From the NCBI GenBank assembly GCA_038065315.1, contig JBBTRF010000001.1, forward strand, positions 300,776-364,775: 64,000 nt of DNA, read 5' to 3'. Below are positions 2,735-27,496 of the stretch, piece after piece (position 1 is the first letter of the stretch; each line of letters starts with the position of its first letter). The notes below the pieces were generated by a model, which saw nothing but the letters and a program-made list of their open reading frames with translations, was not told the DNA's origin and ran no database searches. Made by a program: the position numbers and the translations under genes. Origin of the DNA: Patescibacteria group bacterium (GTDB lineage Bacteria > Patescibacteriota > Minisyncoccia > Phycocordibacterales > JBBTRF01).

Positions 2735-4084
2735 TCAAATGGAACGCAGCGACTCAACAAGGGCAATGATTGCGCGGTCGATGTCACGCTTGGTCGTCCA
2801 GCGGCCAAAGGAGAAGCGGAGGGCGTGCGGGGTGCGAGGCACGGAAGCGGCCGACAGGATGCCGGCGGCAATGGCGGCGGCTTGCGCGCGGCGGAGCGCG
2901 CGGATCACGTAGGATTCGTCCTCGTCGCGAAGGCAAGCGCTCTTGGTGGAGCACGCGACGCCGCGCGCATCCAATTTCAACAGTAAAAATTCGTGATCAA
3001 TTGGCGGCGCACCAACATCGGTCGGTTGAAACGAAACACTCACAATGTGCGGAGACTGGTGCTGGGAATCAATATCAGATGAGCCGTTCAAAAACAGTTG
3101 AACATGCGGAGTTTTTTTGGCGAGCTTTTCCTGCGCGTGCAGGATGAAATAATTTCGCAACTCCGTGAGTCGCGCCACCTCGCGCTCTCGCAAGCCTTCG
3201 GCAAGCTCGAGCGCCTTCGCCATTCCCACTGCTCCAGGCACATTCTCTGTCCCCGATCGCACACCGCGCTCTTGTCCGCCGCCGTACATGATCGGCATGA
3301 GTTCGATGCCACGCCGCACCCACAGCACCCCAACGCTTCGCGGGCCACACACCTTGTGACTATCGAGAGTAATCAAATCTGCACCGAGTTGCGTGGTCGA
3401 GAGCTTTGCGTAGAGCGGCGACTGACTCGCATCACAATGGAACAGCGGAAACAAGACCTGAGAGAGAGCGTTAGTATCTCTCGCGATCATTCCAGCAAGC
3501 ACATTTTCTTTTCGAGCCTTGCGCACCGCTTTCGCCACTTCGTCGATCGGTTGAACGGTGCCGATCTCGTTGTTTACCGACATCACCGAGACCAAAAATG
3601 TATTGGGGCGAAGTTTTTTGCGCAGCTCAGCAACATCAACGCTGCCGGTTGCATCAATTGAAAGATGTTCAACTGTCACGCCAACCTCGCTAAGGTGTCG
3701 CATCGATTCAAGCACAGAAGTGTGCTCGATTTCTGAGACGAGGCAGTGCAGATCGCTCGGCTTCAAGCCGTACCCACCGAGGGTCTTTGGCATGACGAGT
3801 TTTTTGAATAGACCAAAGATGGCAAGATTGTTCGCTTCGGTGCCAGTGGCCACAAACAAGATTTCGTCGGCGTGAGCATTCAGCGTGCGCGCCACCCTAG
3901 CCCGTGCTTCGGAGAGCGCACGTCGAGCGTGCACGCCATCCGCATGAATCGCCGATGGGTTGGCAAAATGCCGTTGCACGGTCTGCGCAATCTCTCGAGA
4001 CACACGAATATCCGGCGGCGTCAGTGCAGCGTAATCCAAATATATTCGTGATTTTTGGGCCAATCTATTGAGGAAATCCAACAT
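2735..4084 (-). CDS. cysteine desulfurase (class V aminotransferase, IscS/NifS-like)
   Basis: Carries the PLP-lysine region LDSHKVCGPRSVGVLWVRRG, GTENVPGAVGMAKALELA, and a C-terminal active-site Cys region. The start is taken at MLDFLN (4084), which has a GATACCAT -10-like box 8 nt upstream. Confidence 0.85.
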   Translation of the reverse strand: MLDFLNRLAQKSRIYLDYAALTPPDIRVSREIAQTVQRHFANPSAIHADGVHARRALSEARARVARTLNAHADEILFVATGTEANNLAIFGLFKKLVMPKTLGGYGLKPSDLHCLVSEIEHTSVLESMRHLSEVGVTVEHLSIDATGSVDVAELRKKLRPNTFLVSVMSVNNEIGTVQPIDEVAKAVRKARKENVLAGMIARDTNALSQVLFPLFHCDASQSPLYAKLSTTQLGADLITLDSHKVCGPRSVGVLWVRRGIELMPIMYGGGQERGVRSGTENVPGAVGMAKALELAEGLREREVARLTELRNYFILHAQEKLAKKTPHVQLFLNGSSDIDSQHQSPHIVSVSFQPTDVGAPPIDHEFLLLKLDARGVACSTKSACLRDEDESYVIRALRRAQAAAIAAGILSAASVPRTPHALRFSFGRWTTKRDIDRAIIALVESLRSI

Positions 4085-19394: not shown

Positions 19395-22300
19395 TTACAA
19401 ACACACCGCGCTCGCCAATGTGTCACCATCTCGCAGGCGCATAATACGTACGCCTTGGGTCTGTCGGCCGAGGACCGGAATCTCCTTGATATCGCAGCGG
19501 ATGACCTGGCTCTTTTTGGAGATGGCCACGAGCTCGTTGGCACCATCACCGACCTCGCCTTCTTTCACCTCCTTGGCAGCCGCAGCCACATCCACCACGC
19601 TCGAAGTGATGACCTTGCCGGTCTTGTCGGTGATTTTCGCGGTCAAAATACCGGAGCCGCCGCGCTTCTGCACCTTGTATTCGGAGAGCTCAGTCTGCTT
19701 GCCGTAGCCGTTGCTCATGATCACGAGCAGTGCTGGCTTTTTCATATCCTTCTTCACCACATCGGCACCAATGACGGTGTCGCCCTTTTCGAGACGCATC
19801 GCAATGACACCCATGGCTGCGCGGCCCATTTCGCGGATATCGGTTTCCTTGAATCGGATCGACTGACCTTCGCTGGTCGCAAGGATCACCTCATCGCCCT
19901 TCTCGACAAATCGTACCGACACGAGACTATCGCCAGACTCCAGACCGATAGCGATGAGGCCACTTCGTCGAACATCGTGGAAGGTTTCGGCATTCACCTT
20001 CTTGCCCACGCCATTTTTGGTGATCATGAAGAGACTGAGACCGCTTTTCTTCACCTCCTTCGGCATCGGGAGAATCGAGGTGACGCGTTCGTCGTCGGCC
20101 AGTGCCAAAAAGTTTACGATTGACTTGCCCTTGGTCGCGCGCTTGCCTTCAGGGATCTCGTACATCTTGATCTGGTACGCCTTGCCCTTGTTCGTGAAGA
20201 ACAGCATGTCCGCATGCGTGTTCGCATTCAAAATATGGGTGATGAAATCCTCTTCTTTCGTATCGAGATCCACCACACCTACACCGCCGCGCTTCTGTCG
20301 GCGATACTCGTCTGGCAAGGTACGCTTGATGTAGCCACCCGCAGTGAACACGAGCACAGAGTCCACGTCTGGGATGGTGTCCTCAGGCTTAAATTCCTTC
20401 ACACCTCCACGGATGACCTTGGTGCGTCGCTCGTCGCCATATTTTGCACGCACTTCGAGCAGTTCTTTCTTGATCACCGCCAAAATCTTCTTCGCGCTCG
20501 AGAGCAAATCCTTGAGCTCGCGAATGAGCGCCTGCACAGCGTTGAGTTCGTCTTCAATCTTCTGTCGTTCGAGGCCCGCGAGACGCGACAGCTTCATTTC
20601 CAAAATAGCAGTCGCCTGGCGGTCGGAGAATTTGAAGGTCTTCATCAAATTGAGATGCGCCTCCGGGGTGTCCTTCGACTTTTTGATCAATTTAATGATC
20701 TCGTCGATATGGTCGAGCGCTTTCTTGAGGCCGAGCAAAATATGCTCACGGTCTTCAGCCTTGCGGAGGTCAAATTCGGTGCGACGACGCACCACCACCT
20801 GTCGATGCTTAATGAATTCCTCGAGCACGCTCTTGAGCGAGAGTGTCTGCGGCACGCCGTCCACGAGGGCAACGGTGTTGAAGTGGAACGTATCTTCGAG
20901 CTGTGTGTGTTTATACAAAAAGTTCAGCACGGCCTGTGGGAAAGCACCCTGCTTGAGGTCGATCACCACGCGAATGTCTTTCGTAGACTCGTCTCGGAGG
21001 CCCTTGATACCTTCGACCTTCTTCTCGCGAACGAGGTCGGCGATGGTCAAAATAAGGTCGGCTTTGTTCACTCGATATGGGATCGAGGTGATGATAATCT
21101 GGAACGAGCCGTTCTTAGTCTCCACGATTTCCGCTTCGCCGCGCACCACCACGCCGCCGCGGCCAGTGGTATACGCATGCTTCATTTCGGCAGAAGCGTA
21201 CAGCATCGCGCCAGTCGGGAAATCCGGACCCTTCACAAATTGCAAAAGGTCTTCCGCAGAAGCATCGGAGTTGTCGATGAGATGCGTGGTCGCATCCACC
21301 ACTTCGCCGAGATTGTGCGGCGGAATGTTGGTCGCCATACCGACGGCGATACCAAGGGTGCCGTTCAAAAGGAGATTCGGGACAGCAGCCGGCAGCACGC
21401 CCGGCTCTTTTCGAGTGTTTTCGTAGTTTGGTCGGAAGTCGACAGTGTCTTTCTCAATATCCTGGAGCATCACGGTCGAGATGCGCGCCATCTTCGCCTC
21501 AGTGTATCGTTCTGCCGCGGCGCCGTCACCGTCGATTGAGTTGTGCACGAATACGCCCGCCGCCAGCGCAAAATTGTGGCTTACCGGCACAGTGAGGTCG
21601 TATACATCTTCGCGTTCGCCTGAGAATTCAACGCGAGAAACTTTGTGGTTTCCCACGAGCTCAACCGTAAGTCGGTCGAGATTAGAACCGTAATATTTAC
21701 TGAAACCAACCTCCCATGAAGTGGCCGACCTGTACGGGTACACCTTCGGACGAAATTCTTCGTAAGTCTCCTTGGAAAGCGGTACACCCTTCTCGATCAA
21801 TTTCTTGCAAACCGTGTCGAATTTCTTCTTCCCGGTCTTGTTTGTGGTGTGATTTTTGTTTCCCTTGATGATCCGCGCGTGCATCTCTTGGCGATACGCC
21901 TCATCCTGCCACAAACGCTTCAAGGTCTTGGTTGCGCGAGCCGAAAGTTCCAGACGCTTTTCTGGATGAGCTGCAATGTACTCAAGATTCACTCGACTGA
22001 GCGTCTCGATCATCTGCGCACGGTATTCAGGATTCTGCCAATTCTGCTTATTCCTTTCCGACATCGCCTGGCTATACTGCTCTTTTACGCCAGCCTTTGC
22101 ACGAAACGCCTTTCTACCTTCCGCAAGCTTCTTTACGTACTCGGGATCATTTTTATGTCGGCCAGCAGTCAGTTCGGAATGAAGTCTCCAATGATCGATC
22201 CATTGCATTCGCTGGATATTTTCTGGACTATTGTTGCCTTTATTAAAATCGACATGATGTCGGACCTTGCCGGCTGACTTGGCATATTTACCAATAGAAA

Positions 22301-23141
22301 TGTTGAGGGCATCGGCCAAATGATGCGCATACTCCCAAGTATTATCGAGAGGTTGGTAGATCATCTCGTATCCAACCATATCCGAAAGTGCACTTTCTCC
22401 TTTTTCAGAAAGACGGCTGTACAAAGGCATCAATGATTCACCTGGCTTTAGATATTGCGCCTCTTTATAATCCTGATTCTTCAGAAGGAATTTGTGGTTT
22501 AGCGTACATTTGATCTCTTTTCCATTGTCGAGCACCACCTTCATGATCTCAGCGTCCTTAATCGTCAGTCGCGGCTTTATCAATTGAGCAATTTCCACCT
22601 TTCCCTCTTTTGAAACAGTGAAGGTGTAATTTTTCTTGCCCTTCTTGTCCTCATTGATGAGTTCACCAAAAGAAAGATTGCGCCCATCAGCGAGTCGAAC
22701 TTCCGTATCTTTTGTAAAACAACCGAAGTTACCCTGGCCGATGATCAGCGGGTATCGAATCGAAAAATCCTGCGCCATCTTCACCATAGATTCATACACC
22801 GCGACGTTGCCGTGCGGGTGATATTTTCCGAGCACGTCTCCCACCACCGCCGCAGACTTTCGCGTCTTCGCGCTCGCCACCAGGCCCATCTCGTGCATTG
22901 CATACAAGATACGTCGGTGCACCGGCTTCAAACCGTCGCGCACGTCAGGCAGGGCTCGCGCAGTGATCACGGACATCGCGTAGTCCAAATACGAGTCGCG
23001 CATTTCGGTAGTGATGCTGCGACTCACCACGTTCTCGCGTGCAGGCAAAGCCGACGCCTCTGATGCGCCACTTTTTCCGCCCTTATCGCTTTTGCCTTCG
23101 CTGCCGCCCTTTGGCTTCTTGTCTGAATCTTTAGATGACAT
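19395..23141 (-). CDS. gyrA: DNA gyrase subunit A, intein-containing precursor (1248 aa)
   Basis: N-extein ends ...IIGQGNFG and the C-extein resumes SIDGDGAAAERYTEAKM, with the active-site Tyr region intact. The rest is a normal GyrA, including the C-terminal beta-pinwheel repeats. Confidence 0.95.
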   Translation of the reverse strand: MSSKDSDKKPKGGSEGKSDKGGKSGASEASALPARENVVSRSITTEMRDSYLDYAMSVITARALPDVRDGLKPVHRRILYAMHEMGLVASAKTRKSAAVVGDVLGKYHPHGNVAVYESMVKMAQDFSIRYPLIIGQGNFGCFTKDTEVRLADGRNLSFGELINEDKKGKKNYTFTVSKEGKVEIAQLIKPRLTIKDAEIMKVVLDNGKEIKCTLNHKFLLKNQDYKEAQYLKPGESLMPLYSRLSEKGESALSDMVGYEMIYQPLDNTWEYAHHLADALNISIGKYAKSAGKVRHHVDFNKGNNSPENIQRMQWIDHWRLHSELTAGRHKNDPEYVKKLAEGRKAFRAKAGVKEQYSQAMSERNKQNWQNPEYRAQMIETLSRVNLEYIAAHPEKRLELSARATKTLKRLWQDEAYRQEMHARIIKGNKNHTTNKTGKKKFDTVCKKLIEKGVPLSKETYEEFRPKVYPYRSATSWEVGFSKYYGSNLDRLTVELVGNHKVSRVEFSGEREDVYDLTVPVSHNFALAAGVFVHNSIDGDGAAAERYTEAKMARISTVMLQDIEKDTVDFRPNYENTRKEPGVLPAAVPNLLLNGTLGIAVGMATNIPPHNLGEVVDATTHLIDNSDASAEDLLQFVKGPDFPTGAMLYASAEMKHAYTTGRGGVVVRGEAEIVETKNGSFQIIITSIPYRVNKADLILTIADLVREKKVEGIKGLRDESTKDIRVVIDLKQGAFPQAVLNFLYKHTQLEDTFHFNTVALVDGVPQTLSLKSVLEEFIKHRQVVVRRRTEFDLRKAEDREHILLGLKKALDHIDEIIKLIKKSKDTPEAHLNLMKTFKFSDRQATAILEMKLSRLAGLERQKIEDELNAVQALIRELKDLLSSAKKILAVIKKELLEVRAKYGDERRTKVIRGGVKEFKPEDTIPDVDSVLVFTAGGYIKRTLPDEYRRQKRGGVGVVDLDTKEEDFITHILNANTHADMLFFTNKGKAYQIKMYEIPEGKRATKGKSIVNFLALADDERVTSILPMPKEVKKSGLSLFMITKNGVGKKVNAETFHDVRRSGLIAIGLESGDSLVSVRFVEKGDEVILATSEGQSIRFKETDIREMGRAAMGVIAMRLEKGDTVIGADVVKKDMKKPALLVIMSNGYGKQTELSEYKVQKRGGSGILTAKITDKTGKVITSSVVDVAAAAKEVKEGEVGDGANELVAISKKSQVIRCDIKEIPVLGRQTQGVRIMRLRDGDTLASAVCL
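21540..22721 (-). mobile_element. GyrA intein (394 aa) with HNH-type endonuclease domain
   Basis: Begins with Cys (CFTKDTEV...) and ends ...VFVHN, followed by a Ser. The internal HNH motif is HHVDFNKGNNSPENIQRMQWIDHWRLH. The insertion lies between GNFG and SIDGDG, about 10 aa before the catalytic Tyr. Confidence 0.85.
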
Positions 23142-24439: not shown

Positions 24440-25690
24440 ATGTTGTTCAAGATCGGCAAAAAGGCGAAAGCCGTGCCAGTAGACGAGAAGGAAGCAAAAG
24501 TAAACGCGAAAACCGAAGCGAAGGCTGAGGTTGCGGAAGCAACTGAGACGAAAAAGTCTCCTCGCGCAGCCGGAAAAGCAGCGGCGAAAGCAGAGGCAAA
24601 GGCTGAAGCGGAGAAAGTGGCTCCAAAGAAGGCGCACCTCATGGACTCGTTCCTTGAGCAGACCGCGACTACCCCAGTAGTCGGCGACGTCGTGGAAGGT
24701 AAAGTCATAAACATCGACAAAACCGGTGTGTACATCGACTTGCCTCCATACGGTACTGGTATCATCTACGGCCGCGAGTACATCGCCGCACGAGATGTGA
24801 TCAAGAAGATCAACATCGGAGACAATGTTGCTGCCAAGGTTGTTGATGCAGAAAATGAGAACGGCTACGTTGAACTCTCCCTCAAGGAAGCTCGACAGGC
24901 CCTCATTTGGAGTGAGATCGAAGACGCGATCCGCGACCGAAAGGTGTACGAATTGCCAGTGAAGGAAGCCAACAAGGGCGGTTTGATCATCGAGTGGCAG
25001 GGCATCATGGGTTTCCTCCCAGCATCCCAGCTCAAAGCTGAGCACTACCCTCGCGTAGCTGATGGCGACAAGGATCGTATTTTGGATGAGTTGAAGAAGC
25101 TCGTCGGCCAGCGCATTGCTGTCTGCGTCATCTCTGCGATTCCAAAGGAAGGCAAGCTCATCTTCTCTGAGAAGAATCCGGATCAGAAAGACAAGCAGGA
25201 GATCATTGGCAAATACAATGTGGGCGATGAGCTCGAAGGTACTGTCACTGGTATCGTCGACTTCGGTGTCTTCGTAAAGGTGGAAGACGGCCTCGAAGGC
25301 TTGGTCCACATCTCTGAGATCGACTGGTCACTCGTCGAAGATCCTCGCACCATGTTCAAGACTGGTCAGAAGGTCCGCGTGAAGATCATCGAGATCAAGG
25401 AAGGCAAGATTTCCCTCTCTATCAAGGCACTCAAGGAGAACCCTTGGAAGGAAGCGGCAAAGAAGTACAAGAAGGACGATGTCGTGAGCGGCGTGATCAT
25501 CAAGTTCAACCGACACGGTGCCCTCGCCTCTATTGAGGAAGGCGTCGCGGGCTTGGTCCACGTCAGCGAATTCGGCGGTGAGGACAAGCTCCGCGCCAAG
25601 CTCGAACTCGGCAAAACCTACAACTTCAAGATCGCGTTGTTCGATCCGCGGGAGCAGAAGATGGCACTCGCGTTTGTCGATAAGAAGTAA
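24440..25690 (+). CDS. rpsA: 30S ribosomal protein S1 (4 S1 domains) with Lys/Ala/Glu-rich N-terminal extension
   Basis: Four S1 repeats (GDVVEGKVINID..., GGLIIEWQGIMGFLP, GDELEGTVTGIVDFGVFVKV, DVVSGVIIKFNRHGALASI). The first ~67 aa are low-complexity, so the true start is uncertain (possibly Met68). Confidence 0.8.
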   Translation: MLFKIGKKAKAVPVDEKEAKVNAKTEAKAEVAEATETKKSPRAAGKAAAKAEAKAEAEKVAPKKAHLMDSFLEQTATTPVVGDVVEGKVINIDKTGVYIDLPPYGTGIIYGREYIAARDVIKKINIGDNVAAKVVDAENENGYVELSLKEARQALIWSEIEDAIRDRKVYELPVKEANKGGLIIEWQGIMGFLPASQLKAEHYPRVADGDKDRILDELKKLVGQRIAVCVISAIPKEGKLIFSEKNPDQKDKQEIIGKYNVGDELEGTVTGIVDFGVFVKVEDGLEGLVHISEIDWSLVEDPRTMFKTGQKVRVKIIEIKEGKISLSIKALKENPWKEAAKKYKKDDVVSGVIIKFNRHGALASIEEGVAGLVHVSEFGGEDKLRAKLELGKTYNFKIALFDPREQKMALAFVDKK

Positions 25691-25711
25691 GAAATCGAAA
25701 AATACAAAACA

Positions 25712-25748
25712 AAAAGAGCTTCCCAGAGGAAGCTCTTTTTGTTTTGTA
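25712..25748. terminator. bidirectional rho-independent terminator
   Basis: AGAGCTTCC-cagag-GGAAGCTCT, flanked by T-tracts on both strands. Confidence 0.75.
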
Positions 25749-25823
25749 TTTTTACTTTTTTAACCTCTTTGTTTTTTGCACCTCCTTCAGATAATTCTCC
25801 TTCGTACTTATCTTTTTTCCGCT

Positions 25824-26603
25824 CTAGGATTCAAGTTTCTTGCGAGCATCGCCAGCAATCGTCCCACCCTTCGTAGCCGCAACTTTATTTGGAACGAACC
25901 CTTGAGCATCAGTAGTTCGAGCAATTTCTGTGGTCGCCGCCTCACCGAGCATTGAAAAGATGAGTTCTAGGTCATTCATGTGATCACGAAGATTCTCTCG
26001 CTCGAGACCTTTTAGGGTTTTATACTCATTCGGCGTCATGCCAAAAGCCGCTTTTGATATCTCGGCGGTGAGAATAGCGTATTCATTTTGCTCTTTGACG
26101 CCTCGATTCTGCCACTCGTTGGTCAATTCTTCACGAATGGTAATACCCCTCATACGCTTTTCGATCCAGGCATCATCGTAGCCCTTAGCTTTATAAAGAG
26201 CGCGAGTGCGTTTTGTGGCAAGTTCAGGGTCTTCGATCTCCTTTATGCGTTCATAGCCTACAGTAGCCAACCAACGCTTAAATGGTTCGGCTTTGGGTGA
26301 AGGGACTGACTGGATAATGCGGAACAAGCCTTCGGCGTTGGCGCAGTCAGTTTCTCGCATCTTGCCATCAGGGGCCGGCAATTTCAACTGGTGACAAAAT
26401 GTCACCAGTTGACTCCCTTCGTCTTTCAGCCTTTGCGCGAGTTTATTCCAATATTTTCTCGCAGTGAGATCATCGACTTGATCGGTAAGCGCCTGCACTA
26501 CATCCACCACCGAAAACCACCACTCATTGTTGCGGATGATTTTTCGAATCTTCGTGCCCTTAAAGACGGCGATTTTACTGATTGGATTTAGATTTTCTGA
26601 CAT
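25824..26603 (-). CDS. Bro-N domain protein (phage antirepressor / DinD-like)
   Basis: Starts at MSENLNPISKIAVFKG. The Bro-N core is KIRKIIRNNEWWFSVVDVVQAL. The C-terminal half resembles the DinD/RhuM family. TGCTATACT lies ~36 nt upstream. Confidence 0.5.
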   Translation of the reverse strand: MSENLNPISKIAVFKGTKIRKIIRNNEWWFSVVDVVQALTDQVDDLTARKYWNKLAQRLKDEGSQLVTFCHQLKLPAPDGKMRETDCANAEGLFRIIQSVPSPKAEPFKRWLATVGYERIKEIEDPELATKRTRALYKAKGYDDAWIEKRMRGITIREELTNEWQNRGVKEQNEYAILTAEISKAAFGMTPNEYKTLKGLERENLRDHMNDLELIFSMLGEAATTEIARTTDAQGFVPNKVAATKGGTIAGDARKKLES

Positions 26604-26749
26604 TCTGTTATTTCTTATATCTTGCAGTAAAGCTAGTATAGCAAAATAGTGCTCAAGAAACATATAAAAAATGTTAAAGAAAAGCCTAAGAAAAGGTAAA
26701 GAAATTATGAAGAGAAGTCCTCATCACACATCTCTGCTATACTATCGTC

Positions 26750-27496
26750 ATGTATTACACAATCATTGGAGTCGTCGTTTTCATCATTCTTGCCAGCCTT
26801 CGCCAAGTCAACCAGTACGAGCGCGGACTGAAGTTCACTATGGGCCGCTTCAGCAAGATCATGGAGCCGGGCTGGAGGATCGTTGTGCCAGTATTTCAGT
26901 CGTACCGAAAGGTTGATATGCGAGTAAAAGCTGTCGACGTGCCGGACCAGAATGCCATCACAAAAGACAATATTTCAGTCAAGGTGAATGCTGTCTTGTA
27001 CTACAAAGTCGAGTCTGCTGAAAAGGCTATTCTCGAAGTAGAGGATTTCATGTACGCCATGTCGCAATACGCTCAGACTACAATGCGAAATATCGTCGGC
27101 GAAACCACCCTCGACAACCTCCTTTCAGGCCGCGAGACCATCGCCAACCGCATTCGAGAAGTCATCTCCTCCGAATCAACCGCTTGGGGACTCAAGGTTT
27201 CTAATGTCGAACTCAAAGACGTGTCGCTTCCACCTGACATGGAGAGAACTATTGCCAAGCAAGCAGAAGCTGAACGAGAGAAGCGCGCCGTCATCATCAC
27301 CTCTGAAGGCGAGCTCGCTGCATCCGAGAACATGGCCAAAGCTGCGCAAGTACTCGCAGGATCGCCTGGCGCCCTTCACTTGCGCACCTTGCAGTCGATA
27401 AACGACATTTCATCCGATGAATCGAACACGGTCATCTTCACCCTGCCAATGGAGCTTCTGAAAGCGTTCGAGGGATTTGCGAAGAAGAATAGCTAG
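26750..27496 (+). CDS. SPFH/band-7 (stomatin/prohibitin-like) protein
   Basis: N-terminal TM, then the SPFH core (RGLKFTMGRFSKIMEPGWRIVVP...ISVKVNAVLYYKV...GLKVSNVELKDVSLP). TGCTATACT lies 10 nt upstream of the ATG. Confidence 0.85.
   Translation: MYYTIIGVVVFIILASLRQVNQYERGLKFTMGRFSKIMEPGWRIVVPVFQSYRKVDMRVKAVDVPDQNAITKDNISVKVNAVLYYKVESAEKAILEVEDFMYAMSQYAQTTMRNIVGETTLDNLLSGRETIANRIREVISSESTAWGLKVSNVELKDVSLPPDMERTIAKQAEAEREKRAVIITSEGELAASENMAKAAQVLAGSPGALHLRTLQSINDISSDESNTVIFTLPMELLKAFEGFAKKNS

Follow-up and report, generated by a model that had tools for sequence, protein, structure and literature searches.

The gene considered here is the gyrA of a Patescibacteria group bacterium, which lies on the minus strand of a 64,000-nucleotide window (contig JBBTRF010000001.1 of assembly GCA_038065315.1, positions 300,776 to 364,775) and is interrupted by an insertion with the features of an intein. 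The predicted 1248-residue precursor was identified as DNA gyrase subunit A (GyrA) by the NCBIfam model NF004043, with 1054 bits against a cut-off of 902. Its match to Pfam DNA_topoisoIV is broken into two stretches that flank a match to Intein_splicing (PF14890; E = 4.9e-22, 78.8 bits versus a cut-off of 35.8), and six DNA_gyraseA_C matches follow. Coordinates of all parts of the gene are given in Table 1.

Table 1. Parts of the intein-containing gyrA gene, in window coordinates.
Feature	Position	Strand	Basis
gyrA precursor ORF (open reading frame), 1248 residues (N-extein, intein and C-extein)	19395..23141, stop codon included	minus	single ORF, no internal stop
N-extein, GyrA residues 1-140, ending ...RYPLIIGQGNFG	22722..23141	minus	alignment with Staphylococcus aureus GyrA up to the Gly preceding S(M/I)DGDG
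Intein, 394 residues, Cys1 ... His393-Asn394, protein residues 141-534	21540..22721	minus	junctions, intein models, predicted fold
Cys1 codon, block A nucleophile, directly after GQGNFG	22719..22721	minus	invariant, 72/72
HINT N-terminal lobe, intein residues 1-95, including block B T73-x-x-H76	22437..22721	minus	TIGR01445 intein_Nterm, 42.7 bits versus cut-off 24.5
Endonuclease insert, intein residues 96-358: HNH nuclease, then helical, presumably DNA-binding region	21648..22436	minus	sub-model and BFVD fold matches
Predicted HNH (beta-beta-alpha-metal) core, intein residues 150-185: VRHHVDFNKGNNSPENIQRMQWIDHWRLH	22167..22274	minus	predicted strands and helix, PHROG, family profile, conservation
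Helical region and C-terminal helices, putative DNA-recognition module	21648..22166	minus	all-helical in both AlphaFold2 models; three repeats
HINT C-terminal lobe, intein residues 359-394, blocks F/G: EDVYDLTV...HNFALAAGVFVHN	21540..21647	minus	TIGR01443 intein_Cterm, 23.3 bits versus cut-off 15.6
Ser+1 codon, first C-extein residue, putative transesterification nucleophile	21537..21539	minus	corresponds to Ser of GNFGS(I/M)DGD in intein-free GyrA
Catalytic Tyr codon (RYTEA), C-extein residue +12	21504..21506	minus	aligned with RYTEA of S. aureus and Escherichia coli GyrA
C-extein, residues 535-1248	19395..21539	minus	rest of winged-helix/tower/coiled-coil and C-terminal beta-pinwheel

The two junctions read GQGNFG|CFTKDTE and AGVFVHN|SIDGDGAAAERYTEA, and they lie within the universally conserved GyrA sequence GQGNFG-S(I/M)DGDGAAA(M/E)RYTEA, in a loop of the winged-helix domain, 11 residues upstream of the catalytic Tyr. 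The insertion falls just after the counterpart of the quinolone-resistance region of E. coli GyrA (residues 67-106). The Tyr of RYTEA is established as the GyrA active-site residue, Tyr122 in E. coli (PMC9348778). A preliminary description of this DNA, made from its letters alone, had placed an intein in GyrA about 10 residues before that Tyr; its distance was about right, and its coordinates, length and junctions were all reproduced exactly.

Comparison with intein-less homologs, by which that description had proposed to check the insertion, was clear on this point. GyrA from which the 394 residues have been excised aligned with S. aureus GyrA 8-247 without a gap across the junction (E = 1.8e-97). 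A metagenome contig (Ga0172367_10000650, locus L081) encodes an intein-free GyrA of 840 residues, which matches the spliced window protein at 93.6% identity over 833 columns; its empty site is GQGNFG|SLDGDG, and 49 of the 66 nucleotides around the site are identical to those in the window. The intein also has a guanine-plus-cytosine (GC) content of 46.4% versus 55.2% for the exteins, with a sliding-window minimum of 0.43 inside the intein, and its composition is thus foreign relative to that of the exteins. Exactly the same 1248-residue protein is present in NCBI assembly GCA_964355935.1 (contig CAYHFM010000001.1, 256 kb), where it has a precomputed Intein_splicing hit, and the identical protein was found on five contigs. 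Many tblastn matches showed 600 nucleotides of apparent extra length, for which a second insertion in the C-extein was suspected; ORF alignments showed none, and the extra length is an artefact of joining high-scoring segment pairs.

Conservation of individual residues was counted over 72 inteins, all of them at the GNFG|S site of GyrA. Like Cys1, residues T73 and H76 of block B (T73-L-N-H76, in CTLNHKF) and H393 and N394 of block G (VFVH393-N394|S535) are invariant in the 72 inteins, and D372 is retained in 68. With Ser+1, these residues make up the whole catalytic set of a class-1 intein. A Foldseek search of the PDB with an AlphaFold2 model of the full intein (mean predicted local distance difference test score, pLDDT, of 89.7) returned the mini-inteins DnaE, DnaB, RecA and NrdJ-1 as well as the hedgehog HINT domain, at E values of 3.8e-7 to 1e-4; these matches are dominated by HINT and are uninformative on the nuclease. 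Given that the terminal splicing residues, the HINT sequence models and a predicted HINT fold are all present, the insertion is assigned to the class-1 inteins. The proposal of an intein in GyrA is thus borne out by the block A Cys1, the block G His-Asn and Ser+1, by the HINT models and fold, and by the empty-site relative.

Between the two HINT lobes lies the endonuclease region. The string HHVDFNKGNNSPENIQRMQWIDHWRLH, which the preliminary description had singled out as a clear HNH signature, corresponds to intein residues 155-181 and holds the motif H155-H156 ... N163-N164-x-P-x-N168 ... H177 ... H181, with H-N-H spacing. Each of H155, H156, N163, N164, P166, N168, H177 and H181 is kept in 70 or 71 of the 72 inteins, and these residues map onto a predicted strand-strand-helix unit (strands 153-156 and 169-172, helix 174-191). 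The insert is matched by PHROG 7545, annotated as HNH endonuclease (2.5e-7), and by two further HNH PHROGs. A scan with Pfam HNH_3 (threshold E<=0.01) and a family profile covered 43 relatives, 25 of which matched HNH_3 with a best E value of 1.4e-10; precomputed PF13392 hits were also present on P0086, P0090, P0100 and others. In a comparison of the family profile with I-HmuI (PDB 1u3e), the HH motif was aligned to the DHK motif, the catalytic His region, of that enzyme (E = 0.0095). Other Pfam matches obtained with the endonuclease region alone, such as DUF4795 and GerD, are noise.

Structure prediction gave HNH matches among predicted viral structures and none of significance among solved ones. 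An AlphaFold2 sub-model of residues 96-358 had a pLDDT of 94.1, and its Foldseek search of BFVD returned a Hint-domain protein of Bacillus phage SP-15 (4e-9), an HNH endonuclease (1.2e-5) and, at values from 1.2e-5 to 5e-2 with a probability of about 1, several dozen HNH or homing endonucleases of phages. Type I-F HNH Cascade and I-PpoI appeared as structural matches in the PDB at E values of 3.8-6.9 and were not counted as evidence. Scans with Pfam and family models and a motif search found no LAGLIDADG motif or family match in the intein. The claim of an HNH rather than a LAGLIDADG endonuclease is therefore well supported by the PHROG, profile and HNH_3 matches and the phage folds, as far as sequence and predicted structure go; the wording of a clear signature, in contrast, holds for PHROG, profile, relatives, fold and conservation in combination and fails for the window copy when curated Pfam HNH_3 is taken by itself. 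The roles assigned to single HNH residues are putative. Downstream of the core, three repeats of the form [W/K]-x-[N/D]-[P/E]-[E/A]-Y-[R/V] start at intein residues 190, 228 and 271, and by analogy with the modular HNH homing endonucleases described for group 2 in PMC5714182, these helical repeats may recognise DNA.

Relatives of the intein were found in several other proteins. The 435-residue GyrB intein of Synechocystis (Ssp) is reportedly the first HNH intein, from work of Dalgaard and colleagues in 1997. A protein search for intein relatives returned more than 100 hits, among which GyrB inteins (P0057, P0058 and P0072) and inteins of deoxycytidine triphosphate (dCTP) deaminase (PF22769; P0076, P0079 and P0087) covered 90-100% of the query at 33-34% identity and E values of 1e-39 to 1e-61. 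The homology of P0057 and P0058 to the window intein extends over the full length (34% identity, E of about 1e-59 to 1e-61). GyrB and window inteins share the NH2-terminal CF(S/T)(G/K)DT, the COOH-terminal HNFALA(S/A)GVFVHN|S and the nuclease motif HH...NN.P.N...H...H, and the signature of the whole family can be written CF(T/S)xDT...ALA(A/S)GVFVHN. They are similar in size (432-435 residues versus 394) and differ in host and site, which is GQGNFG|S in the window GyrA versus EGDSAGG|SAKQGRD in GyrB. The GyrA-site inteins also form a group of their own, being 45-65% identical to the window copy as against about 34% for the GyrB copies. Relatives in GyrB include cyanobacterial (L066, L080, P0066 and P0094) and haloarchaeal (L065, L073 and L074) inteins, of which L066 and L080 are 435 residues long, and similar elements occur in dCTP deaminase, ThyX, RadA-like and papain-like (peptidase C1) proteins.

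In the classification of Jablonska et al. (2017, PMC5714182), group 22 of the His-Me finger superfamily is [quoted passage not shown] (PF13392). With this listing, nucleases of this type, and the fact that they reside in inteins, were already in the literature. By sequence, we class the window element as a moderately divergent new member of this known and widespread HNH intein family, situated at a well-populated second homing site of GyrA. Ten loci in GTDB (L011, L015, L016, L026, L039, L041, L048, L051, L058 and L062) carry an intein in both gyrB, at EGDSAGG|C...HN|SAKQ, and the adjacent gyrA, at GNFG|C...HN|S. These adjacent invasions suggest ectopic jumps between the genes for the two gyrase subunits.

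The distribution of the element was assessed in contigs of GTDB, with one genome per species. At least 598 stretches matched the family pattern, and of the best 80 loci, which were analysed, 67 carried an intein at GNFG|S. The rarity implied by the preliminary description was therefore overestimated, the more so as the family is catalogued for GyrB and dCTP deaminase. In the protein search, every GyrA hit with a readable junction had its intein at the identical position; sources included Parcubacteria, other Patescibacteria, Woesearchaeota, Nanoarchaeota, Micrarchaeota and Omnitrophica, and one hit already bore the NCBI name "intein-containing DNA gyrase subunit A". The nearest exteins and inteins alike come from metagenome-assembled genomes (MAGs) of the candidate phyla radiation (CPR)/Patescibacteria, the two closest inteins being 64% (L001) and 63% (L002, a Kaiserbacteria MAG) identical to the window copy.

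Among the metagenome comparison set, which consisted of the 80 closest GyrA genes or loci, seven contained the intein, about 50 had an empty site with Ser at position +1 and about 20 had Asn or Thr there. The latter intein-free alleles (GNFG-N/T-xDGD) were seen in L082, L083, L090-L092, L098, L102, L118, L127 and others. Asn at this position could not act as a splicing nucleophile, whereas Thr can, and the Asn and Thr alleles might differ in susceptibility to the homing endonuclease. Intein and extein divergence were related by comparing pairwise identities (first 300 C-extein residues for the extein) rather than by tree reconciliation, which gave a Spearman coefficient of 0.38, with the intein the more similar of the two in 62% of pairs, CPR-DPANN pairs included. 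A Staskawiczbacteria-Nanoarchaeota pair had 67% intein identity versus 47% extein identity, and the window compared with a Micrarchaeota MAG had 59% versus 49%. The patchy distribution and the weak coupling to the exteins indicate, as judged from these sequences, horizontal spread that includes apparent exchange between bacteria and archaea; the family as a whole appears to be spread among CPR bacteria, DPANN archaea, Omnitrophota and others.

Inteins at GNFG|S also vary in size. Short variants of 302-337 residues (L089, L060 and L050) have probably lost part of the endonuclease. Long variants of about 465 and about 525 residues, with extra insertions, occur mainly in Omnitrophota and Woesearchaeota (L045, L047, L049, L052-L058, L061, L063, L064 and L070). 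In a viral set drawn from IMG/VR contigs, 388 relatives of the intein family were found; the viral loci, L161-L240 among them, have the intein in many different host proteins, and of the 59 inteins that could be extracted, 42 have the HNH motif. Phages are plausible vectors of the CF(T/S)GDT...AGVFVHN intein family.

The preliminary description had also set this site apart from that of the mycobacterial GyrA inteins, a distinction with which our results agree. The mycobacterial elements (Mxe/Mle, "GyrA-a", NF038098, PDB 1AM2) share with the window intein the host protein and the class-1 pattern of Cys1 ... His-Asn, and the two sites, 12 residues apart, belong to one short loop that surrounds the catalytic Tyr. 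The mycobacterial site directly follows the Tyr (RY|T), however, whereas RYTEA is uninterrupted in the window. The window protein failed NCBIfam NF038098 GyrA_w_intein, with 819.3 bits against a cut-off of 1850 and only extein positions aligned, and the Mxe GyrA intein gave no sequence match to the window intein among PDB chains at E<=10. The Mxe element is a mini-intein, and the endonucleases of other mycobacterial GyrA inteins are of the LAGLIDADG rather than the HNH type. Tandem inteins 12 residues apart, at GNFG|S and RY|C (...AAAMRY|CV(T/S)GD...), were found in P0005, P0014, P0022, P0085 and L025 (about 3683-3730), where the short extein between the two inteins contains the catalytic Tyr. 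Given that some relatives hold both in tandem, the GNFG|S and RY| inteins are independent elements. A loose regular expression for a second intein at RY|C returned 11 loci and was trusted solely where the junction context was present, that is, in L025 and the four P proteins just listed. A GyrA fragment from the GOS marine metagenome (P0045) has a third, upstream site, ...AHN|CLGKYHPHGD, with a precomputed LAGLIDADG_3 (PF14528) hit, and also holds an HNH intein at GNWG|C.

The comparison with I-HmuI and its phage HNH_3-type relatives (PDB 1U3E, His-Me finger group 2) yielded both similarities and differences. The catalytic HNH motif of I-HmuI aligns with that of the window intein, and in each protein a small beta-sheet with a conserved GY...H element comes before the HNH core and helical modules come after it. 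I-HmuI is free-standing and intron-encoded, however, whereas the window nuclease is nested in a HINT domain. The helical repeats of the intein had no detected counterpart, and the similarity to I-HmuI escaped detection by Foldseek against the PDB.

Together these features suggest the following course of splicing and homing. Translation would give the 1248-residue precursor, in which the HINT domain would carry out the N-S acyl shift at Cys1 with assistance from T73 and H76 of block B. The thioester would then be passed to Ser+1 and Asn394 would cyclise with the help of His393, releasing an 854-residue functional GyrA and the free 394-residue intein. The insertion splits the loop leading to the active-site Tyr, and the unspliced precursor should therefore be inactive; given that gyrA is essential, splicing must be efficient. 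Once free, or possibly while still part of the precursor, the intein would act through its HNH site, with His156 as general base and Asn164, Asn168, His177 and His181 serving in structure and metal binding. Together with the helical repeats, this site would recognise the uninterrupted GGTAACTTCGGT|TCAATCGACGGTGAC of intein-free gyrA alleles and nick or cut it. The empty site reconstructed for the window gyrA is CCGCTGATCATCGGCCAGGGTAACTTCGGT|TCAATCGACGGTGACGGCGCC.... Repair templated on the intein-bearing allele would copy the element in, and the insertion would destroy the element's own target site. Splicing, nuclease activity, the sequence and length of the target and the type of cut are all predictions here. 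Both splicing and endonuclease functions are nevertheless likely to persist, to the extent that residue conservation is a guide: the splicing residues are invariant, and those of the HNH motif are present in 70-71 of 72 inteins.

We consider it highly probable that gyrA in this organism contains a class-1 intein of full length, in which an HNH (His-Me finger) homing endonuclease is nested, and that this intein is spliced canonically and has spread horizontally. Several observations weigh against this interpretation. The window copy was not among the 25 relatives with HNH_3 matches, its own score for this model being below threshold (E = 0.1; 12.7 bits versus a gathering cut-off of 24.8); the profile match to I-HmuI is marginal at E = 0.0095; and Foldseek of the endonuclease sub-model against the PDB gave nothing significant (best E = 2.0). 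Given that the closest intein is only 64% identical, there is also no evidence of a very recent transfer into the window genome. Conserved residues reflect past selection and are not proof of current activity, and we know of no splicing or cleavage experiment on the window element or any close relative. A first alternative draws on some of the same points, namely that splicing persists, as an essential gyrA requires, whereas the endonuclease has decayed or become inactive, so that the element is vertically inherited and immobile here, late in the homing cycle. The best intein match anywhere, at 64% identity, leaves no trace of recent invasion, and the sub-threshold HNH_3 score fits this view, as do the shortened relatives of 302 (L089) and 323-337 (L060, L050) residues, in which endonuclease loss does occur. 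Against it, the ORF is uninterrupted, every candidate residue for HNH catalysis and structure is found both here and in 70-71 of the 72 inteins, a mean identity of 48-53% in the endonuclease region across hosts of different domains points to purifying selection, and the 93.6%-identical GyrA without an intein implies gain or loss on a short timescale. We regard endonuclease decay as rather unlikely.

Still less probable, in our estimate, is a reading in which the intein has become a post-translational regulator of gyrase and is retained for that benefit as well as by homing; splicing would depend, for example, on redox state (through Cys1), temperature or DNA damage, and active GyrA would be limited to favourable conditions. 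Its position in the DNA-gate loop beside the catalytic Tyr, where the unspliced precursor should be inactive, would suit such a switch, other inteins of replication and repair proteins have been proposed to splice conditionally (PMC4760082; PMC11409957), and the site is occupied in very diverse lineages. However, the sequence has no feature specific to regulation and no extra Cys to trap Cys1, extein residues -1 to -3 being N-F-G; clustering of inteins at active sites is also explained by conservation of the target; and a patchy distribution (seven of the 80 closest GyrA) combined with a conserved HNH motif is what a selfish homing element predicts. There is, finally, the a priori possibility that the insertion is not such an intein at all and instead represents a lineage-specific domain of GyrA, an assembly chimera or a LAGLIDADG-type element, CPR proteins often having unusual insertions. 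To this we attach almost no weight: the HINT models and fold, the gapless GyrA obtained by exact excision, and the recurrence of the element at an unchanged junction across at least 67 independent assemblies, with the identical protein on five contigs, rule out an insertion domain or a chimera, and a LAGLIDADG element is opposed by the absence of any such motif or family match in the intein. Beyond the canonical homing intein that we favour, a more far-reaching proposal is that the GNFG|S ("GyrA-b") intein is currently active and shuttles between CPR bacteria and DPANN archaea in shared groundwater or sediment, possibly via phages, with an uncharacterised HNH specificity and a new helical-repeat module for DNA recognition. 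We put this forward tentatively, as a possibility to which we would give well under even odds.

The window is ordinary cellular DNA, in which the neighbouring genes encode, among others, a Lactamase_B_3 protein, LepA, an S1-domain protein and a class II ribonucleotide reductase. A search of the 64-kb window for gyrB, further inteins of the same family and LAGLIDADG motifs found none. GyrA itself begins with a Lys/Gly/Ser-rich low-complexity extension (residues 1-35; 23036..23141, minus strand; MSSKDSDKKPKGGSEGKSDKGGKSGASEASALPAR...) that is missing from the GyrA of S. aureus and of E. coli. Next to the gene for the S1-domain protein, a gene on the minus strand (25824..26663) encodes a 279-residue protein with a Bro-N domain (PF02498, 2.7e-14). 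It lies in a patch of low GC content at about 25600-27000 (0.39-0.49, versus about 0.52 for the window), and it may be phage-derived or mobile.

For GyrA, the survey by Novikova et al. (2016, PMC4760082) counted 50 inteins, from Actinobacteria, Aquificae, Chloroflexi and Proteobacteria. Among archaeal GyrA sequences, Villain et al. (2022, PMC9348778) reported 23 with inteins and set them aside. Our literature search, which did not extend to InBase and the site tables of Novikova et al., found no paper on the GNFG|S site specifically; it likewise found no biochemically characterised intein-encoded HNH enzyme of the family to which the window element belongs. Many public genomes carry this element in the identical place, and the window copy is a tidy example of a known intein family that will not surprise a specialist.

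The remaining interest lies in the little-studied class of HNH inteins, in the unexplored helical-repeat module and in the apparent movement between CPR and DPANN. The element is an apparently intact intein of the HNH rather than the LAGLIDADG type, a class that is abundant in genomes and sparse in experimental study, and its host is an essential enzyme and drug target. Annotation pipelines and phylogenies based on GyrA must excise the intein. Engineered mini-inteins have already been derived from the GyrB relative, and the compact HINT domain and efficient-looking CFTKDT...VFVHN|S junctions of the present intein could supply others. The nested nuclease with its helical repeats could serve as a new programmable scaffold for nicking or cutting, and the distribution of the element offers a tractable marker for gene flow between CPR and DPANN. 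The understanding of inteins is unchanged by these results, which extend a known family to another well-populated homing site.

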